Shown: one piece after another, positions 3,857 to 57,649 of the stretch
Position numbering within the stretch: the stretch's first letter is position 1
Layout of the letters: every line of letters begins with the position of its first letter
From: Candidatus Nomurabacteria bacterium
GTDB lineage: Bacteria; Patescibacteriota; Minisyncoccia; Phycocordibacterales; UBA9973
Reading direction: 5' to 3'
DNA length: 64,000 nucleotides
Assembly: GCA_016699365.1 (NCBI GenBank)
Contig: CP064973.1
Coordinates: forward strand, 429,684-493,683
Made by a program: the position numbers and the translations under genes
Notes under the pieces: model-generated
Told to the model about the DNA's origin: nothing
The model's database searches: none
Seen by the model: the letters and a program-made list of their open reading frames with translations, nothing else

Positions 3857-3881
3857 TTATAAGCTAGTATAGCACGACTGC

Positions 3882-5864: not shown

Positions 5865-5873
5865 ATTTAATAT

Positions 5874-7628
5874 CTATTCATTCGAACGGGCAAATATTTT
5901 CCATACTGCATCGCTCTCTATATACCACTTGTAAACAGTGGCAAGCCGATCATGAGGTTCGACAATATGATCGACAGTTAATCCTTTTAATTTTTTTGGT
6001 AATACATAAATAAAGTCAGGGGAGTATATAAACACAGCAGCATTATCATCTTTTATAACTTGTTCAAATTTTACATAATTGGTAAGTCTATCTTCACTAG
6101 AGAGTAACCCTTGGGCTTTTTCTAAGTAAGTATCAGCTTTAGTGTTTGTGTACAGTGCTATGTTTAGTCCAGGATCATTTCTCTGGGATGAATGCCAAAA
6201 AGCAAATAGGTCATTTTCAGTACTTATTATTTGACCGAAAAGTAATACATCATATTTTCTAGGACGTATAACATTTTGATTTAATACGCCAATTTCAAAT
6301 ATTTTTAATTCTACATCTGCTCCTATTGCTTCTAAATTCTCTTTTATAATTTCTCCAGATCTTTTCAATTCTGGTGCATCACCGGTGGAGATAGAGAATT
6401 CTAATCTTGTATTTCCAGATTTACCTTTTTTTATCATTATCCCGTCTTCTCCTCTAGACCATCCATTCTTCTCTAATATGCTTACAGCTTCATCTATCGA
6501 TGCCATTTTTGTTTCTTCAGTATTAAATGATGTTCCATCTAGAAGTGTTTTTGGAATAGGGCTATCAATTGTTTGACCGTAATTGTATAGAACCTCGTTT
6601 ATTATTCTATCTTTGTCGATAGCTGTATTGAATGCACTGATTACTGATTTATCTAAAAATACAGGAGATTGATTTTGATTAAAGAATAAGCCGAATATTC
6701 TAGGTAGGGTAGTGGTTTCAATTCTCGCTCCGCTCTCTTCTAATTCTCGGGCTTTCTCTGGAGTTATAGCACTCATACTTTCTATGGATCTGTTTTTATA
6801 AGCACGAATCATATCATCTTCGTTTACATAGAAGTTAAATGTGATGCGATTTACAAAAGGTTTTCCAAGAGTAAATTTACTGAATGATTTTAAAGTATAT
6901 GAACTAGGTGCTCCAGAACTTTTTTTATCTATATCTTTTACTAGATAAGGACCAGAACCAATTGCTTTTGAATTATACTCACTAAAATTCCATTCCTCGA
7001 TAGGTATGTCTTTCCATATATGATATGGAAGTATTCCTATTGTTGCGTTGTCCAAGAAAGATGCGAAACGCTGTCTAAGTGTAAATGATATTGTGAGATC
7101 GTCTATTTTTTCGACTTCAACACCTTCCCATTCAACTCTCCTAGGGCTTTTCAATAGAGGATCTTGAATTTTCTCTATTGTGAAGATTACATCATCGGCT
7201 GTTAGAGGTTCTCCGTCATGAAAAGTTAGCTTTTCATGAAGTTTGAAGGTGTAAGTTAATCCATCGCTTGATATCTCGTAGCTTTCAGCTAAATCAGGAA
7301 CTATAGATCCATCTGGCATCTTTCTTACAAGTCCAGAAAAAACCACGCTTACCAAATCATCGTCGGTGTCGGAAAGTGCTAGTACTGGGTTAACGAATCT
7401 CGGAGTACCCACTATTCCTTCTGTTATTGATCCACCACTAGCTGGAACTTCAATAATAAAATTAGAATTTATTTTACCTAATATGATAAAAGTCGTAATT
7501 ACGAGAGCGGTCAAAATAGTAACAAAAACAACCCATTCTTTTCTTGTTAAATAGTGTGGGATTGCCGCCAACTCTTGTTTCTTTGGAAAACGAAGTCCAC
7601 GAGCTTTTCTAAATAAGTTTTGGAACAT
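5874..7628 (-). CDS. ABC transporter substrate-binding protein, family 5 (peptide/nickel type), membrane-anchored
   Basis: N-terminal TM anchor followed by an SBP_bac_5-like core (TYTFKLHEKLTFHDGEPLTADDVIFTIEKI). Confidence 0.65.
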   Translation of the reverse strand: MFQNLFRKARGLRFPKKQELAAIPHYLTRKEWVVFVTILTALVITTFIILGKINSNFIIEVPASGGSITEGIVGTPRFVNPVLALSDTDDDLVSVVFSGLVRKMPDGSIVPDLAESYEISSDGLTYTFKLHEKLTFHDGEPLTADDVIFTIEKIQDPLLKSPRRVEWEGVEVEKIDDLTISFTLRQRFASFLDNATIGILPYHIWKDIPIEEWNFSEYNSKAIGSGPYLVKDIDKKSSGAPSSYTLKSFSKFTLGKPFVNRITFNFYVNEDDMIRAYKNRSIESMSAITPEKARELEESGARIETTTLPRIFGLFFNQNQSPVFLDKSVISAFNTAIDKDRIINEVLYNYGQTIDSPIPKTLLDGTSFNTEETKMASIDEAVSILEKNGWSRGEDGIMIKKGKSGNTRLEFSISTGDAPELKRSGEIIKENLEAIGADVELKIFEIGVLNQNVIRPRKYDVLLFGQIISTENDLFAFWHSSQRNDPGLNIALYTNTKADTYLEKAQGLLSSEDRLTNYVKFEQVIKDDNAAVFIYSPDFIYVLPKKLKGLTVDHIVEPHDRLATVYKWYIESDAVWKIFARSNE

Positions 7629-7701
7629 AAATTATTTGGAGTTTGTTTTAATGTGAAATTGTTTTCACATTTTTAGTTTTAAGATACAGTTTTAAACTAT
7701 A

Positions 7702-7932
7702 CTAGACTAGAACAGCAGCAAGACTTGCCAATGTCAATAATACAGCTGTGATAATTGCTGTATAAAAGAGTACTTTCTCAAACCCGCGTCGTGTGTGGAA
7801 TGTGGATAGGCTGTCTGAGCCACCAAAAGTGCCACCCAAGCCTGCGCTTGATTGCTGGAGAAGTATTGATATGACTAGAATAATAGATAGAAAAATCTGT
7901 ATGTAAGGCAATGCCTCAGTGATCGTACTCAT
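7702..7932 (-). CDS. secG: Preprotein translocase subunit SecG
   Basis: Two TM helices with SecG signature LLQQSSAGLGGTFGGSDSLSTF. Start set at the internal Met (MSTITEALPY...). The ORF-track start at 7968 probably reads through the promoter region. Confidence 0.55.
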   Translation of the reverse strand: MSTITEALPYIQIFLSIILVISILLQQSSAGLGGTFGGSDSLSTFHTRRGFEKVLFYTAIITAVLLTLASLAAVLV

Positions 7933-8071
7933 AGATATGAGCATAGCAGATTGACGTATTTTTGGCAAACTATAACTGTGTTTATAGTGTTTTATTTTGT
8001 CCTAAAAACTGCTAAATAATTATATTTAACATAGGTTTAATAGGGGATTTTTATCAATTTGCCCTATGGGG

Positions 8072-8100
8072 TTGACATTGCTTTGCACCTCGTCTATACT
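8072..8100 (+). promoter_or_regulatory. Near-consensus sigma70 promoter upstream of the 16S rRNA gene
   Basis: TTGACA (8072-8077), 17-nt spacer, TATACT (8095-8100). Confidence 0.5.
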
Positions 8101-8305
8101 ATCCTTACTCTACATATAAGTAGGGTAACTAACAGACATATGAAAAACTAACTTTTTTAATCTAAACAAGTAAAGTTTGATTGCGCCTGTTGGACGCTTT
8201 TTTCTTTGAAAATTCAAGAAGCTAAGTAATGTAATAATCTGAGTCTAAAAATAGTTTATGTTTTCTTTTGTTTCGTTCTATTTCAAAAAGACAGAGCAAT
8301 CTGTT

Positions 8306-9856
<1,551 letters not shown>

Positions 9857-10118
9857 TGAAACCCCTTCATATTTATATGAAGTTAAGGTGTCGGTATTGT
9901 ATGCCTCAATTGAGCATACAATGGTCAGTTAAGCGCGGACCTAAAAGCAGCTTTGACAGGAGGGAAAGCCACCCCAATAGAACGAAACAAAAGAGTATAG
10001 AAACTATTAGATTTTACATATAAAAACGCCCACATCGGGTTGTTTTTTGTTTTTAGAAAGAAGCTTAAACGGATTGACTTTTTGTATATTTGTGATATTA
10101 TAAGGAAAACGTACCAAA

Positions 10119-10724
10119 ATGGAAAAAAACTTATATTTATTTGCTTTTACTGCATTTATTGCCTTTATGGTTTCGTGTGATAAATACGAGATTCCGGAGC
10201 CAATTGAGTCGATTCCTTACCAGGGAGAGACAGGTGATACTGTCGATATTCCGGGTGGAGAGGATACTATTCCACCAACTGGAGAAGAAGACATTTTAGC
10301 TCCGTTTAAGGCGGACGCAGATGTATTTTTTGTGGATTTCCAAATGGCATTCATTGCCGATCCAACTGCTGATTCGCTTTTACGAATCCCGATGCTGGAT
10401 TCGATATATGATCGTTGGGCAATCTACAATGCAGGATTTATTGACGGATATTTTGCTTCGATTGTTGGAGCAGAGGTCCCAGCTGACTCACTAATCCCGA
10501 CATTCTTGCCGGATGAAGTGTGGGATACGTTGGTTACAATTTACCCAGCTTTGTTTAGTGGATTTTTGTCAGACATCCAGATTGATTTACTCGATCCGGG
10601 TGAGGCCGAGGAAATCTTTAATGAAAGGTGCAACGTAATCATCGATATCGTCATGAATAGACGATGTGATGAGTGGGTTGATAAATACTTTGGCCGTTAT
10701 GCCAATCCTCGTAAAATCCATTGA
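10119..10724 (+). CDS. Hypothetical acidic lipoprotein
   Basis: Signal peptide plus lipobox (FMVSC). Acidic and Pro/Glu-rich. GC content (~44%) is above the local average. Confidence 0.45.
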   Translation: MEKNLYLFAFTAFIAFMVSCDKYEIPEPIESIPYQGETGDTVDIPGGEDTIPPTGEEDILAPFKADADVFFVDFQMAFIADPTADSLLRIPMLDSIYDRWAIYNAGFIDGYFASIVGAEVPADSLIPTFLPDEVWDTLVTIYPALFSGFLSDIQIDLLDPGEAEEIFNERCNVIIDIVMNRRCDEWVDKYFGRYANPRKIH

Positions 10725-10749
10725 TAAATAAGGCCAAAAAAGTTTTTTA

Positions 10750-10786
10750 AAGCCCCGCACCCGCGGGGCTTTTACTATTTTTTAGG
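10750..10786 (+). terminator. Rho-independent terminator
   Basis: Hairpin GCCCCGCACCCGCGGGGC followed by a T-rich tract. Confidence 0.55.
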
Positions 10787-11053
10787 TATAAAATTTTAAT
10801 ATCAACCAACACTATACACTTGGTCATGGTACGGCCAAACAAAACAAGAGTGATTATTTTTATCTTTGAAAAAATATTTTTACGACACTAAATAAGTCTT
10901 TGTTATAAGGCTCGTGCGACACACATCTTTACAAGAAAATTTTTTTGTTTTACGGATATAAAAAGTGAGTTATCCACTACGACAAGAAAAAAAAATTTAG
11001 GTACAATGAATACCACAAGTTAGAACTTTTTATTAATTTATTTTTTATTGCGC

Positions 11054-13372
11054 ATGACAAAAAAAATCACCCTCAGTAAACAAGATCTTGCAAAGATCAA
11101 AGAAATTCGTAACCGCGAATTTAACATAATAGCTTTTGATCTAAGTAAGATTATTGAAGCTATCAATAAAGCTTTTGCTTCAACTGGCGAGGGAGAACAT
11201 GCCGATGCTGAATATGTTGGCAAGAAGGTTTTCAAAGAACTATTGGCTATCAAAACAGAAGCTAAAGACAAAAACTTTACTCCTACAGTAGAGCTTATAC
11301 AGGATTTGGTAGAAACTGAGCTTATTCGTGAGAAATATGTGCATACAGCAAAGGCTTATATTCTATATAGAAACAAGCGCGCAGAACTTCGTCGTGAGGT
11401 TGGTCCAGTTCCAGAGAAGGTTAAAAAGATGGCCGAAGAGAGTAAGAAGTATTTCAGAAATCCTCTTGCTGAGCTCGTGTACTACAGAACATACGCACGT
11501 TGGATAGATGCAGAAGGTCGTCGTGAGACTTGGATTGAGACTATCGATCGTTATATGGATTTCATGCGTGAAAACATAGGCAACAAGCTAAAAGAATCAG
11601 AGTATGCTGAAGTTCGTGAGGCAATTCTAAAACAAGAAGCGATGCCTTCAATGCGCCTTATTCAATTCGCAGGCGCTCCAGCTCGCAAGACAAACGTTTG
11701 TGCATACAACTGTTCATTTATCGCACCATCTACATTTCAAGATTTCGGAGAGATTGTATATATATCAATGTGTGGAACTGGAGTAGGTTACACAGTTGAA
11801 TCAAAAAATATTCAAGCACTTCCACAGATTAAACTTCAAGATGGGAAAAAACTTCCTACTTTTATAGTACCTGACTCAAAAGAAGGTTGGGCTGATGCTC
11901 TCGTGCATGGTATGAAGACTTGGTTCGGTGGAAATGATGTTGAATTTGATTTTTCACTTCTTAGACCAGCCGGTGCTCGTCTAAAAACTATGGGTGGAAA
12001 ATCTTCAGGTCCACAACCTCTAGTTGAGCTTCTCCAGTTTACTCGTGAGCGTATCTTGCGCCGACAAGGAAGACATCTACGAAACATCGATGCGCACGAT
12101 ATTATCTGTAAAATAGGTGAGTGTGTTGTTGCTGGAGGAGTACGTAGAAGTGCTTTGATATCACTTTCAGATTTGGATGATGAAGAAATACGCGATTCAA
12201 AGAAAGGTCAGTTCTATCTCACAGAAGGTCAGAGATCACTAGCAAACAACTCAGCTGTATATGAAAACAAGCCTTCAGCTATAGAGTTTATGGATGAATG
12301 GGTAGCTTTGATGAAATCAGGATCTGGAGAGAGAGGAATCTTCAATCGTGGATCACTTCATGCAACTCTACCAGAACGTCGTATAAAACTTTGGCAGAAA
12401 GAGTACAAGGGTTACTTCTCACCAGATGGACGCGTAGTCGGACCGATCGGAACAAATCCTTGTGGAGAGATTATTCTCCAATCAAAACAGTTCTGTAACT
12501 TATCAGAAGTAGTAGCGCGCGCAGATGATACAGAAGAAACTCTAATGAGAAAAGTGCGTATAGCTGCAATACTTGGAACATACCAATCAACACTTACAAA
12601 ATTTGGATACCTCTCAAAAGAGTGGCAAGATAATTGTAGAAAAGAATGCTTGCTTGGAGTTTCTATAACAGGTCAATGGGATTGCGGGCTTGCTCGAGAT
12701 GGCAAGATGCTTGAAAAACTCAAGAAAGAATCTATTCGCATTAACAAGATCTTTGCAAAGCGTTTTGGAGTAAATGAATCTACATGTATTACTTGTGTTA
12801 AACCTTCTGGAACCGTTTCTCAGACTGTAGACTGTTCAAGTGGTATGCATCCTCGTCATGCTCCATACTACATCCGACGTGTACGTATATCTGCAACAGA
12901 TGCACTTTTCAAAATGTTGAAAGACCAAGGCGTACCTTACTTCCCAGAAGTTGGTCAGTCAGTTGATACTGCTACTACATATGTACTTGAATTTCCAGTT
13001 GCAGCACCAAAAGGTGCGATATGTAAAGACGATGTGTCTGCACTTGCTCAGCTAGAACACTGGAAAGTTGTAAAAGTTAACTACACAGAACACAATCCAT
13101 CAGTAACAGTTTCTGTGGGAGACGATGAATGGATTGAAGTGGCTCATTGGTTGTATCAGAACTGGGATATCGTAGGAGGTCTTTCATTCCTTCCTCGATC
13201 AAATCACGTGTACCAACTTGCTCCATATGAAGAGATTACAAAAGAGCAATATGAAAAACTAAAGCCAACAGTTGCAAATATTGATTTCTCAAAGATTGTT
13301 ACTTATGAAATCCAAGACGAAACTGAAGTTAAAAAAGAACTCGCATGTGTGTCTGGAGTCTGTGAAATCTAG
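11054..13372 (+). CDS. nrdJ: Class II (adenosylcobalamin-dependent) ribonucleotide reductase with N-terminal ATP-cone
   Basis: ATP-cone-like N-terminus; active-site block NPCGEIILQSKQFCNLSEV; C-terminal redox-active Cys pair CVSGVCEI. The ORF track starts at TTG 11048. ATG 11054 (MTKK) is more plausible. Confidence 0.8.
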   Translation: MTKKITLSKQDLAKIKEIRNREFNIIAFDLSKIIEAINKAFASTGEGEHADAEYVGKKVFKELLAIKTEAKDKNFTPTVELIQDLVETELIREKYVHTAKAYILYRNKRAELRREVGPVPEKVKKMAEESKKYFRNPLAELVYYRTYARWIDAEGRRETWIETIDRYMDFMRENIGNKLKESEYAEVREAILKQEAMPSMRLIQFAGAPARKTNVCAYNCSFIAPSTFQDFGEIVYISMCGTGVGYTVESKNIQALPQIKLQDGKKLPTFIVPDSKEGWADALVHGMKTWFGGNDVEFDFSLLRPAGARLKTMGGKSSGPQPLVELLQFTRERILRRQGRHLRNIDAHDIICKIGECVVAGGVRRSALISLSDLDDEEIRDSKKGQFYLTEGQRSLANNSAVYENKPSAIEFMDEWVALMKSGSGERGIFNRGSLHATLPERRIKLWQKEYKGYFSPDGRVVGPIGTNPCGEIILQSKQFCNLSEVVARADDTEETLMRKVRIAAILGTYQSTLTKFGYLSKEWQDNCRKECLLGVSITGQWDCGLARDGKMLEKLKKESIRINKIFAKRFGVNESTCITCVKPSGTVSQTVDCSSGMHPRHAPYYIRRVRISATDALFKMLKDQGVPYFPEVGQSVDTATTYVLEFPVAAPKGAICKDDVSALAQLEHWKVVKVNYTEHNPSVTVSVGDDEWIEVAHWLYQNWDIVGGLSFLPRSNHVYQLAPYEEITKEQYEKLKPTVANIDFSKIVTYEIQDETEVKKELACVSGVCEI

Positions 13373-25973: not shown

Positions 25974-26543
25974 ATGAAAAAATATTTAACCTTACTTGTT
26001 TCATTTATTTTCGGCCTGACAGCTTGTCAGAAAGACCCGATGCCGGGGGACCTTTTCAATAAAATTGACGGCACCTGGTTCGGGTACAAAGTGTACTTCG
26101 GCCAGGCTCCGGTGCTCGATGTGAGCGACCAGGGACTTGCCGATTTATTTATCACCTTTGATCTTGACGGCATCGTTACGATGCAGTTCATGTCATACGG
26201 TGGCACCGACCCGAATTCGGGTGGTGAAGCTTACTGGTCTGATCAAACCTTTACTGGAGATTACTGGCGCAATGAAGATGGTAGCTGGCATGTGCAGTTC
26301 AGCAATTATGATACCTTGCATGTCACAACCAACCGCAAATTTGCGTTGGACTGGACCAATGGTGACTACAGCTACACTGCTGGTGGTGCACCAAGTGATG
26401 AGACTCGCGAGAGTTTCACACTGACTTCGCTCAATGGTGAAAATCACGGTTCAAGCTGGACGTTGATTTGGTACTCCAAAATAGGATGGCTTAAAGCCCG
26501 TACTGTCGAGGATGCTGCACCAACCGATACATATTATCGGTAA
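25974..26543 (+). CDS. Hypothetical lipoprotein (compositionally atypical; GC ~48-50%)
   Basis: Signal peptide plus lipobox LTAC. Rich in Trp/Tyr/Gly. All six frames are open across it, reflecting elevated GC. Confidence 0.45.
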   Translation: MKKYLTLLVSFIFGLTACQKDPMPGDLFNKIDGTWFGYKVYFGQAPVLDVSDQGLADLFITFDLDGIVTMQFMSYGGTDPNSGGEAYWSDQTFTGDYWRNEDGSWHVQFSNYDTLHVTTNRKFALDWTNGDYSYTAGGAPSDETRESFTLTSLNGENHGSSWTLIWYSKIGWLKARTVEDAAPTDTYYR

Positions 26544-26610: not shown

Positions 26611-26645
26611 TTAAATCCCCCATATATATGGGGGATTTTTATTAT
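26611..26645. terminator. Terminator hairpin with A and T runs on both flanks, so it can serve the minus-strand AAA gene as well
   Basis: AAATCCCCCATATATATGGGGGATTTTT. Confidence 0.55.
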
Positions 26646-28315
26646 TTATGACGTGAAAAAGTTATCAATCTTTTTCCTGAGTCTTCTATTATCTCAGCAA
26701 TCTCATCATTGTGGTTTAAATCGAGATTTTGCTTGTAGAGATTTTCCACTGCTTCTTCAACATCACTTGCTTGAATACCTGTCTTTGTGTTGTTGGCTAA
26801 GTCTCTTTTCATTGCATTCGATATGGACATATCAACAGCAGAGACAATCATTGCTCCATTGCATATATGATGAAGAAAAAGATGACCCTCTGATTCTGTG
26901 TATTTTATGTCACACAACTTTAAGTCTTCACTAAAGAATTTTTCTACAAAAACTTTCGACAAATCATCTTCTGCTGAATTTGATTTTGGAATCTTTTTGA
27001 TATTCTTTAGGAAAATCTCGCCTGCACTTTTCTGATCAGGTCTAGTGATTTTGACTTTACGATCTATTCTACCGTCTCTTACAATAGCAGGATCAAGCAT
27101 GTCAGGTCTATTGGTAGCTAATATTATAAAAGCTCCAGAATCTTCAAGCCCATCCATTTCTGTCAGAAACATTGGTACTATTGTTTTTTCAACATCAGAA
27201 CTTACACCGGAGCCTCTTTTTGAAAGTATTGCTTCAGCTTCATCTATGAAAAGGGTGGCAGGATAGTTATATTGTGCATTGTGCTTACGGGCTCTATCGA
27301 AGATTTCTCGAATAGTTTCTTCAGCATTGCCAACATATTTATTTAATATCTCTGGGCCTTTTATATATATGAAACCACTTTTAAATCCTTTTTTATCGTA
27401 ATTTTTTGCCAGAGAAGTAGCAACTGCTTTTCCAAGCATTGTCTTGCCACATCCTGGAGGTCCATATAACAGAACACCCTTTGGCATTTTACGATTGTAG
27501 AATTTAAACAAATCAGGATTTTTGAATGGAAGTTCTACGAGCTCTATCATAAGCTCCTTGGCTTTATGTAGTCCTCCGATTTCATCCCAAGATACATTCA
27601 ATTCTTCGTTCAGTGAAAAATCTTCCTCACTCTTTCCTAAATTCTTGAGAATTATAGAAGAGGAGGGATCAAGTACGATGTGATCTCCTGATTCTGCGTC
27701 TTTGTTTATTTTCCCTGAAAAGACGACTTTCTTGGTTCCGGATATTTCCACTTCACAATGGTTTTCATCCATTAACTTTCGGAAGACGCATACAGGTCCA
27801 AGTGTTACTGTGGCTGATCTGTTTACAATTTGTTTTGTTTTAGAAGACAAGGTACAGACATCACCGGGTTCCACATCAATTAAAGGCTTGTTTATTTCAA
27901 GAAATTGCCCATTGATTACAATAGTGATTGTTTCCTTTTCTTCTTTTACTTCCTCAGTCAATTCTAATTCGAAAGATTTGTTTATTCCTCCGATGTCGAA
28001 ATTGTTTTTGTAACCATTTTCAAATTCAGCTTGTACGCATCCATTTAAATCAATTTCTTTGGTTACTTTTCCTTTTGTGTTTAAGTTTTTTAAGTAATCA
28101 GGATGAGAGATAGATAATCTAACTTCTTTTCCTAATGAAAAGTCTGATGGTCTGGGAAGTCTCTCAACAAGAGTTTTATTTCCTGTTTTTACAACAACAC
28201 AGTACTCAAGAGGGGAGCTAGAGATCGTGTCTATCAAATCGGCTTGAACTGCAATTTTCTTGCGAGCATTTTGTAATGCTTCGCGTAAAATTTCTATCAC
28301 TTGTTTAGAATCCAT
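26642..28315 (-). CDS. ARC/Mpa-family AAA+ ATPase (proteasome-associated-ATPase-like: coiled coil + double OB fold + AAA)
   Basis: Walker A GVLLYGPPGCGKTMLGKAVATSLAK, Walker B ATLFIDEAEAI, RGSGVSSDVEKTIVPMFLTEMDG, NRPDMLDPAIVRDGRIDRKVKI. The pre-AAA block VSWDEIGGLHKAKELMIELVELPF and the N-terminal coiled coil/OB region match ARC/Mpa (Mpa, the mycobacterial proteasomal ATPase of the ARC family) architecture from memory. C-terminal ~100-aa extension. No GQYL-type tail. Confidence 0.65.
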   Translation of the reverse strand: MDSKQVIEILREALQNARKKIAVQADLIDTISSSPLEYCVVVKTGNKTLVERLPRPSDFSLGKEVRLSISHPDYLKNLNTKGKVTKEIDLNGCVQAEFENGYKNNFDIGGINKSFELELTEEVKEEKETITIVINGQFLEINKPLIDVEPGDVCTLSSKTKQIVNRSATVTLGPVCVFRKLMDENHCEVEISGTKKVVFSGKINKDAESGDHIVLDPSSSIILKNLGKSEEDFSLNEELNVSWDEIGGLHKAKELMIELVELPFKNPDLFKFYNRKMPKGVLLYGPPGCGKTMLGKAVATSLAKNYDKKGFKSGFIYIKGPEILNKYVGNAEETIREIFDRARKHNAQYNYPATLFIDEAEAILSKRGSGVSSDVEKTIVPMFLTEMDGLEDSGAFIILATNRPDMLDPAIVRDGRIDRKVKITRPDQKSAGEIFLKNIKKIPKSNSAEDDLSKVFVEKFFSEDLKLCDIKYTESEGHLFLHHICNGAMIVSAVDMSISNAMKRDLANNTKTGIQASDVEEAVENLYKQNLDLNHNDEIAEIIEDSGKRLITFSRHK

Positions 28316-28428: not shown

Positions 28429-28734
28429 ATGAAAAAAATCTTGATTAACCTTCCTGCAATTGCATTGATTATTCTTGCAGTTGTCTTTTCTGCTGTAATC
28501 ATCGCAGTATTAAATGATTCAAAATTTCTGATGATTTTGATCGATGTTTGTTTTGGTGTTTTGTTGTTCTTTTTCTTGAGTGGTAAAGAGAAAATTTTTA
28601 AGAAAAAAACCTTTTCACTCCTCCTGCTTTTTGCTGTTTTGATGATCCTAAACACCATAGCCGCAATCTGGAATCCTTTTTTTGCTATTGGTATATTTTT
28701 GATGGCTAAAAGCCTTAAAGAAAACATAAAATAA
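28429..28734 (+). CDS. Small membrane protein, hypothetical
   Basis: 101 aa, ~4 hydrophobic segments. Followed by terminator AAAACCCCTTCAAATGTAGGGGTTTTT (28741-28767). Confidence 0.35.
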   Translation: MKKILINLPAIALIILAVVFSAVIIAVLNDSKFLMILIDVCFGVLLFFFLSGKEKIFKKKTFSLLLLFAVLMILNTIAAIWNPFFAIGIFLMAKSLKENIK

Positions 28735-28771
28735 AGTCTAAAAACCCCTTCAAATGTAGGGGTTTTTACTA

Positions 28772-28800
28772 TTGACAAAACTAGTCTAATATGCTAGTAT
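28772..28800 (+). promoter_or_regulatory. Sigma70-like promoter
   Basis: TTGACA, 17-nt spacer, TAGTAT. Confidence 0.4.
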
Positions 28801-28901
28801 GCGCGCATAGGTGTAAAAACCAATTGTTCATTCAAAAATCAACAAACATTAAAGAATGAATAAACAGAAAAACTATTTCATCACAAAAAAACTTAAAAGA
28901 C

Positions 28902-28994
28902 ATGGGATTTAAAGATTTTATGAAAAACGCCATTTACAAAGGGGGAGAGGATGAAGATCCTTACTCTGATGTGAATATGAAAAAATGTTCCTGA
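28902..28994 (+). CDS. 30-aa ORF (MGFKDFMKNAIYKGGEDEDPYSDVNMKKCS), possibly the frameshifted N-terminus of the next gene
   Basis: Ends 8 nt before ATG 29002 in a different frame. An A6 homopolymer at 28979-28984 lies at the junction. The N-terminal amphipathic MGF..F style resembles PspA/Vipp1-like starts (weak). Confidence 0.25.
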   Translation: MGFKDFMKNAIYKGGEDEDPYSDVNMKKCS

Positions 28995-29001
28995 GAGCAA
29001 G

Positions 29002-29607
29002 ATGGTTGTACCGCTTGTTCAAAATGTAAACCAGGCAGGTGACAGTGTGTCCCTGGACCCGGAGTACATCGAACACTTCACAGAATTTCTCGAATCTGTT
29101 GACCTTCCTGGTCCGGATTACTTCGAGTTTGCGCAAGTTGTGCGAGCTATGGAAAGTGAGAACTCTGGGATGTCAAAAGAGCAAATTTACCGCATGGCCT
29201 ACATTGGGTTCAAAGCCCAAGGTCATCCTGCAAAGATGTTTATAGATACTGCTATGCAGTACCTGTCGTACTTTGAAGAACATAAGGGTAAATTTGAACA
29301 GTATTTGTCCAGCGAGACCGATACTGCTATTGGCACAAAGAGATCTGAGAATATCGCTCTCACAAAAAAGAACGGAGAAAATCTGCAGAAAATTGCTGAT
29401 CTGAAAGCTCAGATTAAGGCGATCGAAACAGAGAATTCTCAAAATTCTCAAAAGATTAAAATCAATGAAGAGGCCATAAGTAATGAGGAAGAACGTATAC
29501 GTAAAAAACGTACTCGTTTTGAAACTACATACGAATGGTTCAAAGAGTTGATCAATACCGACATTGCAAACATGAACAATTTTCTATCACAAAACCAAAA
29601 ACCATAA
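29002..29607 (+). CDS. Coiled-coil protein, hypothetical
   Basis: 201 aa. A globular N-terminal half followed by a heptad-rich C-terminal half (KIADLKAQIKAIETENSQNSQKIKINEEAIS). GC ~46%. Confidence 0.4.
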   Translation: MVVPLVQNVNQAGDSVSLDPEYIEHFTEFLESVDLPGPDYFEFAQVVRAMESENSGMSKEQIYRMAYIGFKAQGHPAKMFIDTAMQYLSYFEEHKGKFEQYLSSETDTAIGTKRSENIALTKKNGENLQKIADLKAQIKAIETENSQNSQKIKINEEAISNEEERIRKKRTRFETTYEWFKELINTDIANMNNFLSQNQKP

Positions 29608-29610
29608 AAA

Positions 29611-30603
29611 GTGGAAAAACCAAACAGTATTCTTAATTCCAAGGAAAAAGTTGTCGGTCTTATAACTGGCCTGATGATTTTAGCCGGTATTGGTGTGGGG
29701 CTGTATTACATCCTCCCGCCTTTATTATTGATTATCACAAACCTGTTGAGGCTCGGCCTCCTGGTAGGTGGTACATTACTGGTTACGGTGGCTTTATTTA
29801 AAGCTCGTAAATTAATCCGTGCCTCGTATGAAGTCTTTATTCAAAAGCTTTGGCGAGCTCTTGCCAACAACGATCCTATTGCGTTGATGAAAATCAAAGT
29901 AAAGGATTGGTGGGAATCACTTGAAGTTGTAAACAAGCGAATACAAACTCTGCGCGGGTCAGAAGCGCTGCTTGAAGCAGCTTGCAATGACAACGCTGAC
30001 GACGCTGAACAATTTATGCAACTTGCTAAAAAAGCTGCATCGGGTGATAAGGGCAAACAATCTCCTCAGGCCATATTGAAAACAAGACAGGCGCTTCGTA
30101 GGCTACAAGCCAACAATCAGTTAGTACCGCGATTACAAGCCGTAAAACAGGCGATCGCGTTACTTGAAAAACTGTACGAGCGTTGGGAGCTTGATATCAA
30201 GGATCTTGAGGATGAGATTGAAGTGCGGAGTATCAGCTTAAAAGCTGTTCGTGACGTATCATCAGCTCTTGAAGCTGCTGAAAGTATTATGAACGGAACA
30301 CCTGATCAGCGTGCAATGGAAGAACTTGCCAATCAAGCATATGCCGAATTGGTAAGCCAACATGTTGGGAAGGTGAAAAGATTCCTCTCGAAATCCAAGG
30401 GTTGGATTGAGGAGTCAGACTTAAAAGAAGCAGTGCTTACTGATGAGGGATTAAAACTCCTTGATTACGACGAGAAATCTTTTAAGCAACTGGTAGATTT
30501 CAAGCAACAGCTTGAAAATGATCCAGTACTGTCTCAGAAAGTAGTGCTCCCAATATCGAAAAACGCCGACGCGGTGATCGAGTCATTTAGTAAATTGAAG
30601 TAA
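29611..30603 (+). CDS. Membrane-anchored coiled-coil protein, hypothetical
   Basis: Two N-terminal TM helices followed by a ~250-aa helical/coiled-coil domain. Translationally coupled to 29002-29607 (4-nt gap). Confidence 0.45.
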   Translation: MEKPNSILNSKEKVVGLITGLMILAGIGVGLYYILPPLLLIITNLLRLGLLVGGTLLVTVALFKARKLIRASYEVFIQKLWRALANNDPIALMKIKVKDWWESLEVVNKRIQTLRGSEALLEAACNDNADDAEQFMQLAKKAASGDKGKQSPQAILKTRQALRRLQANNQLVPRLQAVKQAIALLEKLYERWELDIKDLEDEIEVRSISLKAVRDVSSALEAAESIMNGTPDQRAMEELANQAYAELVSQHVGKVKRFLSKSKGWIEESDLKEAVLTDEGLKLLDYDEKSFKQLVDFKQQLENDPVLSQKVVLPISKNADAVIESFSKLK

Positions 30604-30642
30604 TTTTCCTTTTCATTTTTTAAACAAAAAACAAATAAGCAA

Positions 30643-32490
30643 ATGAGTATCATTAGCACTTGGAAACGCTTAGGATGGTTGACACAGTTCATCATCCTCG
30701 CAGCAATTTTCACTTACCCTACAATTTTGGGTTTCAATTACCTGAACAGCAAGGGAATCATAGGTGGAAAAAACAAAGAAACTGTGCAGCTTGAAAAAGC
30801 TACGCAGGAACAGAACATAATCTTAACTTCAGCACCATCGAACTACAAAACAGTTGGTTTGACAATGATGCCCTTGCCTTCTTCAACAGTCGTACGCGAC
30901 GCAACACGCGTTAGTATCGAATACTGGGGAATGGCATGGCAGTCACAGGCCGGGTTTGCTCTTGCAAACGGAGGACCGCTTACCACTGAAGGTAGTATGT
31001 ACGACAAGGCGAAAATAAATTTTAATTTTATTCGTCAAGATATGTATGACAAAATGTCGGAAAAAATGCTAGATATCGCAAAGCAATTTGAAGATGATCC
31101 GGAAGGAACACCAATCTATTTACTCGGAATTATGGGTGATGGAATGGTTACCTTTGGGGCACCGCTTATGGCTCGATTGCAGGAAATCAATCCCGACTTT
31201 CGTCCTGTGGGTATATTTACCCCAGGATTCTCAGACGGAGAAGATAAATTTATCGGACCATACGAATGGAGAATTGATCCTCAAAAAGCTCGTGGTGGAA
31301 TCTGCGTTGTATATTTAAAGGATGGTGATCATAACCTTGCGCTCAAATGGGCTGCAGACAATGGAGTACCAGTGAATCCGGATCCAACAACATGGAGTGC
31401 GAATGCACTTAATTTCGTATCTGCCGAGGATTTCCTCGATGCAGCACGAAAATATAATGCACGCAAATCCAACAAGGTGGAATTAACAGAGGTTATAACT
31501 GATGAAAATGGAAAAGTCATTAAACGTGGCGACAAAGTTTTCAAAGAAATTAATTGTGTTTCTACTTGGTTGCCGGGAGACGAAAAAGTTTTCAGCGGTT
31601 CACCGAATGATGACATTATAAATTTGATGTCCACTCGAGAAAATCGTATGCAGATGCCTTGTTTGGTTATTGGATTAAACAAACAACTTGAGATGCATCG
31701 AGGAGATGTTGAAAAATTCATTTGGGCAAGCTTACAAGCATCAGACCAGATAAAGACCTATGACGGAGCACTTCGTTTTGCCTGCAAGGCGCAAGCAGAA
31801 ATTTATAAAGAAGGAGCTGAAGAGAATGGTAAATTCTGGTACGACTATTATCGGGGAAAAACAATTACAACTTCGTTTGGTCGCCAAGTAACATTGGGTG
31901 GATCACGAGCTGCAAATTTAGCCGACAATGCTGAACTGTTTGGGCTCTCTGGTGGAGTTAATCGTTACGAAGCTGTATTCAATTACTTCGGTAATTATAT
32001 GGCTAGATTATATCCTGAAGACGTTCCGACAGTTCCTGATATTAACGAAATGCTTGATTTGTCATATTTGCAGAATGTATATAGTAAATACAAAGGCAAT
32101 ATGACTACAGCAGATGAACCTCAAATGACTCCTGGTGGAATTGTCGACAAGGTTTCTGAAAGAAACTATAAAGTCGAATTTGCCAGTGGTTCAGCACAGC
32201 TAACAGCGGAAGGCATTAAAACTCTCAATGAGATGTATCAATCACTCGCTGTTTCTGATCTCAAAATTCAGGTTTATGGTCACACCGACAGTGATGGTGA
32301 TGATGGTCCCAATATGGAGCTGTCACAAAAGCGAGCCGATGCGGTCAAATATTTCCTGATTAAAAAGGGGATTAACCCAAAAAGGTTTACTGATGTGATG
32401 GGCTACGGAGAATCAAATCCTATTGCGGAAAACACATCTGCAAACGGGAAGCAAAAAAACCGTCGCGTGGAGATTGAGACCGGTATGTAA
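30643..32490 (+). CDS. Membrane-anchored protein with a large central domain (possibly NMT1/SsuA-like solute-binding) and C-terminal OmpA-like peptidoglycan-binding domain
   Basis: N-terminal TM helix. C-terminal OmpA_C motif: VYGHTDSDGDDGPNMELSQKRADAVKYFLIKKGINPKRFTDVMGYGESNPIAENTSANGKQKNRRVEIE. Lies directly upstream of the NitT/TauT-type permease and ATPase. Confidence 0.5.
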   Translation: MSIISTWKRLGWLTQFIILAAIFTYPTILGFNYLNSKGIIGGKNKETVQLEKATQEQNIILTSAPSNYKTVGLTMMPLPSSTVVRDATRVSIEYWGMAWQSQAGFALANGGPLTTEGSMYDKAKINFNFIRQDMYDKMSEKMLDIAKQFEDDPEGTPIYLLGIMGDGMVTFGAPLMARLQEINPDFRPVGIFTPGFSDGEDKFIGPYEWRIDPQKARGGICVVYLKDGDHNLALKWAADNGVPVNPDPTTWSANALNFVSAEDFLDAARKYNARKSNKVELTEVITDENGKVIKRGDKVFKEINCVSTWLPGDEKVFSGSPNDDIINLMSTRENRMQMPCLVIGLNKQLEMHRGDVEKFIWASLQASDQIKTYDGALRFACKAQAEIYKEGAEENGKFWYDYYRGKTITTSFGRQVTLGGSRAANLADNAELFGLSGGVNRYEAVFNYFGNYMARLYPEDVPTVPDINEMLDLSYLQNVYSKYKGNMTTADEPQMTPGGIVDKVSERNYKVEFASGSAQLTAEGIKTLNEMYQSLAVSDLKIQVYGHTDSDGDDGPNMELSQKRADAVKYFLIKKGINPKRFTDVMGYGESNPIAENTSANGKQKNRRVEIETGM

Positions 32491-32563
32491 TGTTTGTTGA
32501 TTAATTTGTGATTAAAAGCAGGTCTTTAAGACCTGCTTTTTTATTTGACAAATTGTTAAATCT

Positions 32564-33391
32564 ATGTTAGATTTAAGGCAAATTTCACCAAAACTAAATA
32601 AAGAAATGAAAGAATTAAAGCGTTTTTTCGAACCTAATGCAAAGATTTCAAGGAGGTCAATGGCACTGATGACTTTTTTTCAGGTAGCCGTACTTCTTAC
32701 ATTGTGGCAATTCTTTGCCGCAGAAATTATCCCTAAACCCACTGATATTTTTAAATCACTGGGTTGGCTTATATCCGACCGAAACATGCTCGGTGAACTG
32801 GGTAGTACAACAATACTTACATTGAAAGCAATGTTTTTTGCGACATCAATCGGTATGGTCTTGTCTTTCCTTGCACCTGTAGCATTTTTCAAGCCCACAG
32901 TCGGACTTGTGGCAAACTTGAGATTCCTAACACTTGTTGGTTTTTCAGTTCTTATTCGTTTATACACATCGACCGGTGAAGAGTATAAAGTTGTACTTTT
33001 GATATTTGGTATGTTGCCGTATATCGTGACCGCAATGTCTGTAGAGGTAATAAGAATAAAAAAAGAAAAATACAATTATGCACGGACTCTTGGCTATGGT
33101 CCGTGGCAATCTTTATGGAACGTAGGCGTGAGAGGGCTTATGCCGAAAGTTCTTGAGGTGGTTCGGCAAAACTTCGCTATTGCTTGGATGATGATAACGA
33201 TGGTTGAAAGTGCTAATCGTGAAAATGGTGGCATAGGTGCATTACTCTATGATCAAAATAGGTTTGCACATAACTTTGATCCTGTGTTCGCTATTCAACT
33301 AGCCATCTTTATTGTTGGTATGTCAGTTCATGTTTTGTTGAACTACGTGAATACCAAGACTTTTAAATGGGCTTATATTTCTAAATCTTAA
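32564..33391 (+). CDS. ABC transporter permease (NitT/TauT sulfonate/nitrate/taurine family)
   Basis: 6-TM BPD_transp_1-like topology. Start may be the internal MALMTFFQ. Confidence 0.6.
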   Translation: MLDLRQISPKLNKEMKELKRFFEPNAKISRRSMALMTFFQVAVLLTLWQFFAAEIIPKPTDIFKSLGWLISDRNMLGELGSTTILTLKAMFFATSIGMVLSFLAPVAFFKPTVGLVANLRFLTLVGFSVLIRLYTSTGEEYKVVLLIFGMLPYIVTAMSVEVIRIKKEKYNYARTLGYGPWQSLWNVGVRGLMPKVLEVVRQNFAIAWMMITMVESANRENGGIGALLYDQNRFAHNFDPVFAIQLAIFIVGMSVHVLLNYVNTKTFKWAYISKS

Positions 33392-33407
33392 AAAACAAGC
33401 ATAAGCA

Positions 33408-34280
33408 ATGGAAGAATATAAAATTACCGATGAGACCCTTCTGCAAATTGAGGGGATAAACAAATCTTTTACGGATTCATCTAACGGTCAGGTTAATACC
33501 GTATTGAAAGGTGTTGATCAGAAAATTTTCGATATTGTTCGTCCCGGTGTTTCTCAGGGGCAGGTTGTGAGTATTCTCGGTCCGTCAGGGATTGGGAAGA
33601 CAACTCTGTTTGAAATTATTGCCGGTATAGAAAAACCTGATTCAGGTCAGGTCATGGTTCGCAACCCACTTCGCATGGCGAGTGCTGATGATAAAGTACC
33701 CCTATTAGTTCCTGTAAATCCAGGAATGGTTGGGGTTGTGTATCAAAGTTATCCCACATTCGAATATCTAAAAGTGCATGAAAATCTTATGCGGGGAGCG
33801 AAGCTTGGTGGAATTCGTGGCAAAGAAGCCATTGAGAAAGTGAAGTACTATCTTGAACACCTTGGTCTTCTTGAGTCTCGTAATAAATTTCCTGCTCAAC
33901 TCTCTGGCGGACAACGTCAAAGGCTTGCAATTGGCCAGCAGTTATTGTGTTCATCAGTTATTTTATTGATGGATGAACCATTCAGTGGTCTTGACCCAAA
34001 TGCCAAGAATGATGTCATGAGGCTCATTGTCGATTTATCGAAAACAAATGAGCTTATCACGTTTATTGTGGTGACACACGATATTCAATCTGCTGTTGCG
34101 ATCTCCGATACTGTCTGGATTATGGGTAAAAACCCTAACGATGTAGGTGCAAGTATTATCGAGTCATACAACCTGATTGAAATGGGTCTTGCTTGGCATC
34201 CCGAAATTAAAAAGATGCCCGAATATCATAAATTTATCGGAGAGATTGAGGAAAACTTTCCAAGATATGCCGGTAAATAA
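33408..34280 (+). CDS. ABC transporter ATP-binding protein
   Basis: Walker A GPSGIGKTT, signature LSGGQRQR, Walker B LLMDEPFSGLD, and a C-terminal extension. Confidence 0.75.
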   Translation: MEEYKITDETLLQIEGINKSFTDSSNGQVNTVLKGVDQKIFDIVRPGVSQGQVVSILGPSGIGKTTLFEIIAGIEKPDSGQVMVRNPLRMASADDKVPLLVPVNPGMVGVVYQSYPTFEYLKVHENLMRGAKLGGIRGKEAIEKVKYYLEHLGLLESRNKFPAQLSGGQRQRLAIGQQLLCSSVILLMDEPFSGLDPNAKNDVMRLIVDLSKTNELITFIVVTHDIQSAVAISDTVWIMGKNPNDVGASIIESYNLIEMGLAWHPEIKKMPEYHKFIGEIEENFPRYAGK

Positions 34281-34357
34281 TTCGTTCTTTGTTTAATGTT
34301 TTTTTATCCACGTTGAATGTGGACATGTAGACCCGAGGTTAAACACCTCGGGTTTTT

Positions 34358-57018: not shown

Positions 57019-57321
57019 ATGGATATTACAGATGTTTTAGCTAAAATAGGTGACATATTAAATGTTATCATCCCACTTCTTATAACTCTTGGAGTTATAT
57101 ACTTTATTTGGGGTGTTATCAAATACGTTACAGCAAAAGATGAAGATGCGCAGAAAGAAGGTCGCAATACTATCATCTCTGGAATCATTGGCTTGTTCGT
57201 TATCGTAGCTGTATGGGGTCTTGTAGGAATCCTACAGAACACATTTGAAACAGGAGACAATACTATCTCAAACGATGATATTCCTTGTATCCCTGGTGTT
57301 GGAACAAACGGAGATTGTTAA
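57019..57321 (+). CDS. Small 2-helix hairpin protein, paralog 4 of 5
   Basis: Helix, loop KDEDAQKEGRN, helix. C-terminal CIPGVGTNGDC. Confidence 0.45.
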   Translation: MDITDVLAKIGDILNVIIPLLITLGVIYFIWGVIKYVTAKDEDAQKEGRNTIISGIIGLFVIVAVWGLVGILQNTFETGDNTISNDDIPCIPGVGTNGDC

Positions 57322-57331
57322 TCTATAATAC

Positions 57332-57649
57332 ATGCCGGCACTTTTTCACAAAGCTTTGGCATCGACTACAGATTGTACATCTAGTATCGATGGGCTCCTT
57401 GCAAAGATAAATCAATATTTGATAAATCCTCTTATTGTGTTTATGTTTGCGGTAGCACTAGCATACTTTATGTTTGGTGTAGTACAGTTTCTAACTCATC
57501 AAGAGAGTTCAGACGAACGCGCAAAAGGTCAGCAGCACATGCTATACGGAGTGATTGGAATGTTTATAATGATCGCCGTGTTTACAATCATGAGAATACT
57601 TGCAAACACTCTCGGTGGAGATACAACTTGTCTGCCTACTACAGTCTAG
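57332..57649 (+). CDS. Small 2-helix hairpin protein, paralog 5 of 5
   Basis: Helix, loop QESSDERAKGQQ, helix. C-terminal TCLPTTV. Confidence 0.45.
   Translation: MPALFHKALASTTDCTSSIDGLLAKINQYLINPLIVFMFAVALAYFMFGVVQFLTHQESSDERAKGQQHMLYGVIGMFIMIAVFTIMRILANTLGGDTTCLPTTV

Follow-up and report, generated by a model that had tools for sequence, protein, structure and literature searches.

A probable conserved five-gene envelope cassette combining an OmpA-fused ABC importer with an ESCRT-III/PspA-like candidate protein in Candidatus Nomurabacteria, other bacteria and phage contigs

A stretch of 64,000 nt from the genome of a Candidatus Nomurabacteria bacterium (705-kb contig CP064973.1, positions 429,684 to 493,683), hereafter called the window, carries on its forward strand between positions 28772 and 34300 five closely spaced genes, here named A to E. 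They encode a coiled-coil protein (A) whose gene is split into two open reading frames (ORFs), a membrane protein with a long helical domain (B), a putative solute-binding protein fused to an OmpA-like domain (C), and the likely permease (D) and ATPase (E) of an ATP-binding cassette (ABC) importer. The locus raises the question whether these genes belong to one functional unit and, if so, what the two helical proteins have to do with solute uptake. According to the analysis presented here, the region probably represents one conserved envelope cassette, A-B-C-D-E, in which a wall-tethered importer would be accompanied by a membrane-bound scaffold. The identity of the individual parts is regarded with high confidence, and the mechanism coupling A and B to the transporter is offered tentatively. 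The window itself is cellular, since a 16S rRNA gene, an RNase P RNA and tRNAs were found in an Rfam scan.

The gene order of the window recurs in other genomes. The ORFs listed by an earlier sequence-only reading of this DNA (29002-29607, 29611-30603, 30643-32490, 32564-33391 and 33408-34280) are all present, and the order A-B-C-D-E with short gaps was found in an unclassified metagenome contig (L001), a member of the Chitinophagales (L003), a Bacteroidetes metagenome-assembled genome (MAG; L006), Hymenobacter algoricola (L008), a member of the Longimicrobiaceae (L009), a member of the Polyangiaceae (L016), two Saccharibacteria (L017 and L022), a Lloydbacteria MAG (L020) and the metagenome contigs L088-L090. 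A MAG labelled Janthinobacterium (L007) matches the same order with gene A cut by the contig end. The cassette thus recurs across Bacteroidota, Myxococcota and bacteria of the Candidate Phyla Radiation (CPR). Furthermore, a scan of the IMG/VR database with the alignment of protein C yielded 74 loci (L093-L166), in which C was detected 72 times, D 69, B 68, E 68 and A 64 times, ordered as in the window; the full cassette order is present in about 64 of them. When synteny was compared in this way, as the sequence-only reading had proposed, the five genes behaved as one conserved module across cellular loci and viral contigs. A reordered form, C-D-E-B′-A′, with or without a gene for an AAA+ ATPase, occurs in L012-L015 and L018. 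In this form, B′ is a different protein combining transmembrane segments with a helical domain, A′ is an A-like protein, and both genes follow the ATPase gene.

The best-characterized part of the cassette is the putative importer. Gene C (30643-32490, forward strand) encodes 615 amino acids (aa) with a predicted transmembrane anchor at residues ~13-34, a disordered linker (40-61), a TauA/NrtA/SsuA-like class II binding domain (~75-490) and an OmpA-like domain (~505-615). The C-terminus matches PF00691 (OmpA) with an E-value of 1e-22 and 80.8 bits against a cutoff of 27.2, and all of 41 homologues retain D549 and R564, the Asp/Arg pair by which OmpA-like domains are typified. In the AlphaFold2 (AF2) model of C (predicted local distance difference test, pLDDT, 88.7; predicted template modelling score 0.84), this domain superposes on 5wtp with a template modelling (TM) score of 0.79 and a root-mean-square deviation of 1.3 Å by Foldseek, so that its profile and fold point to an OmpA-like peptidoglycan-binding domain. 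The central part was placed by Foldseek on TauA (6ssy, TM-score 0.70), NrtA (2g29, 0.66), CmpA (0.63), SsuA (0.63) and ThiY (3ix1, 0.62), and the model thus shows the two-lobe class II fold of the NMT1/TauA/SsuA/NrtA binding proteins. The C protein of the window has no Pfam NMT1 match; weak precomputed NMT1 matches are carried by its homologues. Both domain assignments of the sequence-only reading, an OmpA-like C-terminus and an NMT1/SsuA-type centre, are therefore borne out, the latter by the structure prediction which it had recommended. Its view that such a fusion is unusual has to be given up: the combination of binding protein and OmpA domain is a recurrent family, represented in 43 protein-database clusters, in the genomes of at least 17 species and on 74 IMG/VR contigs, and one homologue is already named [quoted passage not shown]. 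In one of the metagenome contigs (L090, 8055-8783), an extra gene between B and C encodes a protein of 242 aa with a signal peptide, a beta-rich sequence and a C-terminal Phe, which resembles an outer-membrane beta-barrel and may serve the same solute as a channel in that membrane.

Gene D (32564-33391, forward strand; 275 aa) encodes a predicted ABC importer permease with several transmembrane segments and a match to PF00528 (BPD_transp_1) of 33.1 bits against a cutoff of 26.4. Gene E (33408-34280, forward strand; 290 aa) encodes a predicted ABC ATPase (PF00005, 8e-25) with intact Walker A (GPSGIGKT), signature (LSGGQ) and Walker B (ILLMDEP) motifs. The best NCBIfam matches of D are SaoP, SsuC, NtrB and TauC, all below threshold, and the equivalog cutoffs are missed by wide margins (SaoP 52.6 vs 295, SsuC 23.6 vs 347, TauC 21.6 vs 342 and, for SaoA, 130 vs 360). 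D and E thus appear to resemble NitT/TauT-type transporters at the family level only, and it is at this level that the earlier assignment as a NitT/TauT permease and ATPase holds.

Within the NitT/TauT importers (TauABC, SsuABC, NrtABCD/CmpABCD, ThiXYZ), the centre of C superposes on the binding proteins TauA, SsuA, NrtA, CmpA and ThiY, and the cassette has a single permease gene, its product closest to SaoP, SsuC, NtrB and TauC, and a single ATPase gene. The difference lies in the predicted anchoring of C to both membrane and wall, whereas the known binding proteins are free or lipid-anchored. Residues W99, N100, Q102, D166, E200, D201, D227, D229, W309 and D313 of C are invariant in its family, and its set of invariant polar and acidic positions does not appear to correspond to that of any characterized NitT/TauT binding protein. 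The other half of its architecture, an N-terminal membrane anchor with a C-terminal OmpA-like domain bearing the Asp/Arg pair, is shared with the OmpA-type anchors of bitopic inner-membrane proteins, represented by MotB, TssL/TagL, YiaD and Pal; the intervening domain of C, however, is predicted to be a solute-binding protein and not a stator or secretion plug or a linker. An anti-phage defence system was also considered and rejected, as PADLOC returned domain-level matches only (ZorB/MotB for the OmpA domain and generic ATPases).

Gene B (29611-30603, forward strand; IPJ63_02590) encodes 330 aa. A continuous hydrophobic stretch of 55 residues (~12-66) is interpreted as a hairpin whose two ends face the cytoplasm, and is followed by a putative cytoplasmic helical domain, for which the AF2 model (pLDDT 75.9) shows helices 89-145 and 152-228 as a hairpin and a further helix at 239-285. 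Two transmembrane helices and a long helical domain had been foreseen for this gene, in agreement with the model. By exhaustive HMMER search, the B family comprises at least 624 representative clusters at E<=1e-3, nearly all of them 320-360 aa long, and no Pfam family is assigned to it. Its alignment is too divergent for a pattern-based locus search, and word-indexed protein searches with B, as well as with A, returned nearly exclusively self matches. The fold of the model points to possible relatives: the top 12 Foldseek matches in the PDB are all Vipp1 or PspA structures (E 1.8e-3 to 3.6e-2, probability 0.95-1.0), followed by Shrub, Asgard ESCRT-IIIB and CHMP1B. The best match of the same model in BFVD is a viral UniProt protein (E 3e-7).

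At the sequence level, PF04012 (PspA_IM30) is matched below its gathering score by 34 of 100 B-family members, with a best value of 4.2e-5, while the next family reaches 7 members. An hhalign comparison with a PspA+Vipp1 pair places B 87-226 co-linearly on PspA 23-152 over 130 columns at a probability of only 6.5%, and the nearly invariant Asp-Pro at the start of the first long helix of B falls on the Glu-Asp-Pro of PspA; against the single E. coli PspA, hhalign of the B family gave nothing. As each of these lines is weak singly, B is called ESCRT-III/PspA-like in its modelled fold and not a proven member. The comparison with PspA/ESCRT-III profiles and folds suggested by the sequence-only reading came out mixed, with Vipp1/PspA fold matches for B and sequence matches below threshold. 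Relative to PspA, Vipp1 (IM30) and LiaH, the predicted helical hairpin and following helices of B agree best with Vipp1/PspA structures, the Asp-Pro at the first long helix is common to both, and a third of the B family shows weak PF04012 matches. On the other hand, the sequence similarity of B lies below all curated thresholds. The N-terminal amphipathic helix alpha0 was not found in B, which has its own hydrophobic hairpin in this place, while a short alpha0-like segment sits on protein A. The cassette also differs from the Psp and Lia systems in the absence of PspF, PspBC or LiaFSR-type regulators; the known systems have the anchors LiaI or PspB/C.

Protein A is the least familiar component, and in the window its gene is broken. 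The 5′ fragment, an ORF of 30 codons at 28902-28994 on the forward strand, translates to MGFKDFMKNAIYKGGEDEDPYSDVNMKKCS and contains the conserved N-terminal segment MGFKDFMKNAIYKG and the start of an acidic linker. The 3′ fragment (29002-29607, forward strand; IPJ63_02585) encodes 201 aa with the rest of the linker, a helical domain with the motif PGPDYFEF and a C-terminal coiled coil. Its ATG at 29002 lies in the +1 frame relative to the 30-codon ORF, 7 nt past the stop of the latter. A TGA at 28978-28980 blocks the +1 frame and another at 28992-28994 ends frame 0, which confines the change of frame to 28981-28991. This interval comprises the A-run and TGTTCC, and the A6 homopolymer at 28980-28985 (forward strand) is the likeliest site of the shift. 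Deleting one A from this run, or adding two, fuses both ORFs into a protein of 234 aa.

Intact homologues of A measure 232-245 aa and begin with MGFxxFxxAI. The homologues in the unclassified contig L001 (245 aa, starting MGFWKAFGDAII) and in the Chitinophagales locus L003 (232 aa, starting MGVFDSFIKAIYKG), both located via synteny, are single ORFs, and the same is true of about 70 further loci. The N-terminal pattern of the 30-codon ORF is common to 11 members of the A family, and the residues NVPESKMVVP of the +1 frame align with VSGDKKVVRP of the L001 protein. Thus, comparison with the homologues identifies the 30-codon ORF as the true N-terminus of gene A, and the disruption most plausibly as a homopolymer indel, placed in a linker that is disordered and poorly conserved. 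Three options had been listed by the sequence-only reading, of which the split by a frameshift at A6 is upheld; the run itself lies one position downstream of the 28979-28984 given there, and the gap to the ATG is 7 nt and not 8.

The two other options would make the break functional. As an independent leader or regulatory peptide upstream of the 201-aa gene, the short ORF would have its own ATG and a stop 7 nt ahead of the next one; the reading is refuted by its sequence, which is the conserved N-terminus of the full-length proteins, and its probability is next to nil. Alternatively, A6 could be the site of a programmed +1 frameshift or of transcriptional slippage which determines how much of a 30-aa membrane peptide is made relative to full-length A. 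The overlap of the two frames begins exactly at the homopolymer, tRNA-Lys could re-pair from AAA to AAA after a +1 slip, and the broken gene is the only one among the suspicious ORF pairs of the window, as none of five other such adjacent pairs proved to be a split gene. Nevertheless, the frameshift is shared by no homologue examined, the site lies in the poorly conserved linker and has neither a stimulatory stop or rare codon in the A site nor any other stimulatory context, and a run of six A is short for efficient transcriptional slippage, so that a programmed event is considered very improbable. Because the intact homologues encode A as one ORF, the indel is neither a leader peptide junction nor a conserved programmed event, and stems either from an error left in the assembly or from a mutation that inactivated the gene recently. 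No second copy of the junction turned up when metagenome contigs were scanned for its exact pattern. One and the same sequence can indeed be split in one assembly and intact in another, be it through an artefact or a strain variant: a metallophosphatase gene (3414-4544) is one ORF of 376 aa in one and two ORFs of 109 and 257 aa in the other of the assemblies L003 and L004. If the indel is real, the N-terminal membrane-binding segment is severed from the body of protein A.

In the A family, four parts can be discerned, namely an N-terminal segment with an amphipathic pattern, a linker rich in Pro, Ser and Thr or in acidic residues, a helical domain with the motif PGPDYxEF and a C-terminal coiled coil. 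Searches of Pfam and the PDB with protein A gave no family or solved structure beyond generic coiled-coil matches, and PF04012 is matched by none of the 11 family members. The hydrophobic moment of the N-terminal segment (0.51) is not significant alone and exceeds that of shuffled sequences in some members only. By hhalign, residues 1-10 alone align with helix alpha0 of PspA+Vipp1 at a non-significant probability of 1%, and the comparison of A with B yields a coiled-coil match of 35 columns at 45%. A paralogy of A to B or PspA was rejected on these short matches. Accordingly, the resemblance to PspA/ESCRT-III seen earlier in the start of the split gene survives for its first ~10 residues, without significance, and belongs mainly to gene B. 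Protein A is predicted to reside in the cytoplasm as a coiled-coil protein and to bind the membrane through a short segment at its N-terminus.

How, then, might the five proteins work together? In the mechanism proposed, C, D and E would form a NitT/TauT-type ABC importer. Protein C would be held in the membrane by its N-terminal helix and bound to peptidoglycan by its OmpA-like domain, capturing the solute within the wall zone and passing it to a D2E2 translocator. On the cytoplasmic face, B would be anchored by its hairpin and expose its ESCRT-III/PspA-like fold, and A would join it in a scaffold bound to the inner leaflet of the membrane, either directly at the transporter or close to it. 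This scaffold would stabilize or reshape the membrane where the wall-tethered transporter sits, and a nearby ARC-like AAA+ ATPase may recycle or remodel it. The domains and folds, the predicted topologies, the conserved linkage, the frameshift and the intact homologues are evident from the data; the physical coupling of A and B to the transporter, their polymerization and the involvement of the ATPase are inferred.

Several observations weigh against this mechanism. Protein A belongs to no detectable family. The membership of B in the PspA/ESCRT-III superfamily is not established at the sequence level: B of the window shows no PF04012 match at E<=1, a profile search of the PDB sequences with B recovers no PspA and CHMP1B at E 0.45 only, the hhalign probability is low, the Foldseek E-values are marginal (2e-3 to 1e-2), and chance fold matches can arise for long helical hairpins. 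Since C-D-E occurs without A and B in L005 and B alone in L086, the two halves of the cassette can function apart. A terminator-like hairpin lies between genes C and D in the window. Finally, of about 100 loci only 3 have an AAA+ ATPase gene in the neighbourhood of the cassette, and that of the window is of the ARC type, different from the double-AAA type of the published operons discussed below.

Part of this evidence suits a rival explanation, in which the two halves have independent, uncoupled functions and merely travel together: A and B would respond to membrane stress in general, as a PspA-type pair anchored by B, and C, D and E would be an ordinary nutrient importer. Besides the two separated halves and the hairpin, which is accompanied by a promoter-like site, the varying gene order between the variants fits this explanation. 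Against it stand the order and the tight spacing, which persist in several phyla, on about 64 phage-like contigs and over a GC range of 25-65%, while unrelated functions seldom stay so linked; even the reordered variant still has B′- and A′-like genes beside C-D-E. An independent pair and importer is therefore thought unlikely, and a single cassette is preferred. As a separate observation, the lone B-family gene of L086 (3520-4545) is located between a ribonucleotide reductase gene and genes for arginyl- and glutaminyl-tRNA synthetases, in a context of phage-like appearance with no transporter within 7 kb.

The candidate for the AAA+ function in the window is a divergently transcribed gene (26642-28315, reverse strand) encoding an ATPase of 557 aa. 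It aligns end to end (residues 10-552) with ARC/Mpa, has a single AAA domain (PF00004, 1e-35) and scores 338.4 bits with TIGR03689 against a cutoff of 504.75, which makes it a relative and not an equivalog. ARC-like genes are also found near the otherwise divergent cassettes of the Lloydbacteria MAG (37.5% identity, 1.2 kb downstream) and of the IMG/VR locus L132. Three loci of about 100 are suggestive only, and the ATPase may be regarded as a possible, unproven accessory of the cassette. The earlier proposal that it joins the module has these neighbourhoods and a published precedent in its favour and is kept with this qualification. Just upstream of its start at 28315, a 12/12 match to the sigma-70 consensus, TTGACA-16-TATAAT (28367-28340, reverse strand), faces away from the promoter-like site of the cassette.

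The precedent comes from the in silico study of Ravi et al. 2024, whose accessible text describes operons of the order PspA → PBPB+OmpA → permease → ABC-ATPase → TM+Snf7 → AAA+ (TM, transmembrane), proposes an ATP-dependent membrane remodelling linked to solute transport, and gives OGG56892.1 of Candidatus Handelsmanbacteria as an example. The component set outlined there is common to both: an ESCRT-III-like protein that is divergent and anchored in the membrane, an OmpA-fused binding protein, the permease and the ATPase of an ABC transporter, one more protein of helical or coiled-coil type, and a neighbouring AAA+ ATPase. As B, C, D and E co-occur in the window in the way described in that text, its cassette is probably a further member of this computationally defined kind of operon. 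The published arrangement as given there is reproduced by the gammaproteobacterial MAG L018, which encodes at 5199-13307 an A-like protein, a weak PspA, C, D, E, a transmembrane-helical protein and an AAA+ ATPase of 582 aa. In contrast to the operons in that text, the window has the more compact order A-B-C-D-E, its first protein is no detectable PspA, and its ATPase is of the single-AAA ARC/Mpa-like type on the opposite strand instead of a double-AAA+ enzyme with an inactive N-terminal copy. The accessible text of Ravi et al. 2024 does not mention phage copies.

The abundance of such copies raises the further question whether the cassette is at home in phages. The IMG/VR contigs bearing it range from 27 to 65% in GC content and up to 578 kb in length, many of them between 100 and 578 kb. 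Their flanking ORFs are mostly unannotated and co-oriented; the recognizable ones encode HNH endonucleases, ribonucleotide reductase, DNA polymerase, DNA and RNA ligases, endonuclease VII, a DnaB-like helicase and arginyl-tRNA synthetase. Some of these contigs may be misassigned cellular DNA. The full cassette was also found by a scan of the GenBank record LR756500.1 (L167), an uncultured phage of 462 kb and 25% GC, with A at 5987-6748, B at 6753-7859, C at 7893-9707, D at 10063-10833 and E at 10852-11676. The literature searched contains no description of this cassette in phages, and neither ABC transporters nor OmpA or PspA come up in the main text of the huge-phage survey. A phage-encoded binding protein is known in the PstS of cyanophages. 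The present contigs resemble this case in that a phage bears an uptake component of the host type, and differ in bearing a whole importer and two membrane-associated helical proteins.

It could hence be argued that the cassette is primarily an auxiliary module of huge phages, which boosts the uptake of a limiting solute and keeps the host membrane intact, or alters the envelope against superinfection, and that the CPR copy is an acquired, possibly decaying remnant. The large contigs with replication-type flanks, most of them with the full cassette, and the huge phage itself suit this scenario, as do the raised GC content at third codon positions (GC3) of the cassette in the window and the broken gene A, which decay would explain. 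However, the possible misassignment of some contigs counts against it, and B, C, D and E are intact in the window. In a neighbour-joining tree of 91 C proteins, moreover, the window groups with L001, then with the Chitinophagales locus L003 and with L005, and the next group out consists of the Bacteroidota loci L006 and L008, of L007 and of one viral contig. The best viral copies of C are only about 36-40% identical to that of the window, and no phage genes flank the cassette there. A primary phage module is accordingly judged a rather remote prospect. From the tree, the low viral identity, the raised GC3 and the absence of phage flanks, it follows that the window copy fits horizontal exchange among cellular lineages and not a recent phage insertion. 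The cassette as a whole, being shared by many bacterial phyla and huge phages, is horizontally mobile.

The compositional data are in line with such an exchange. The region 28772-34300 has a GC content of 40.2% compared with 37.5% in the rest of the window, with 45% in its highest single 500-nt window. Among windows of 5.5 kb it lies about 1.9 standard deviations above the mean and ranks second; the maximum is caused by the 16S rRNA region at ~7-9 kb (gene at 8306-9856, forward strand). GC3 of the cassette genes is 0.34-0.42 with a mean of 0.376, against 0.298 ± 0.064 in 42 other ORFs (Mann-Whitney p = 0.006). The compositional shift is genuine and modest. Sliding-window and codon-usage analysis thus confirms a non-uniform GC content, although the 43-47% claimed for a GC-elevated island was too high, and the horizontal acquisition deduced from it is plausible, not proven. 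These window-specific traits, the GC shift and the homopolymer frameshift alike, are ordinary.

The significance of the cassette lies in its combination of parts. The bacterial ESCRT-III relatives PspA and Vipp1 are general membrane repair and remodelling proteins with few defined partners, and a self-anchored ESCRT-III-like B genetically locked to a wall-tethered ABC importer would offer a concrete partner system. Its carriers include cultivable Bacteroidota such as Hymenobacter algoricola, minimal CPR genomes and dozens of huge-phage contigs; if the phage copies are functional, phages would carry a complete importer together with membrane-stabilizing proteins. In the most far-reaching version, which we consider speculative and hardly probable, A and B would form an ESCRT-III-like machine of two parts, anchored in the membrane and mechanically coupled to the wall-clamped transporter. 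Huge phages would carry the mobile cassette in order to remodel the uptake and the membrane integrity of their hosts in the course of long infections, and would have exchanged it with CPR and other lineages. If true, bacteria and phages would possess an ESCRT-III system whose cargo or partner is defined.

Regarding expression, a promoter-like site TTGACA-17-TAGTAT with a TG-extended -10 element (28772-28800, forward strand) precedes gene A, directly 3′ of a terminator-like hairpin at 28746-28762. The consensus promoter noted earlier is therefore present; as the region holds 11 promoter consensus matches against 16.8 in shuffled sequence, the match alone proves nothing. In the 5′ leader of gene A, Rfam detected no riboswitch or other RNA. 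Consensus scans further revealed the terminator-like hairpin between genes C and D (32514-32540, forward strand; 12-bp stem and T run), which may attenuate transcription or stabilize the mRNA, a second promoter-like match at 32545-32573 overlapping the start codon of gene D, and a terminator-like hairpin closing the cassette (34329-34355, forward strand).

A few observations concern the surroundings. Between the ARC-like ATPase gene and the cassette, a putative gene (28429-28734, forward strand) encodes a hydrophobic protein of 101 aa with no family match and has its own promoter-like and terminator-like sites. A lipoprotein-like gene (25974-26543, forward strand) encoding a signal peptide with a Cys has 47% GC and a GC3 of 0.51, and is compositionally the most atypical of the 47 ORFs measured in the window, exceeding the cassette genes. 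No 23S rRNA gene was detected within the 64 kb, and the rRNA genes of the source genome appear to be unlinked. At 57019-57321 and 57332-57649 (forward strand), two neighbouring paralogous genes both belong to the type IV secretion system pilin family (PF18895).

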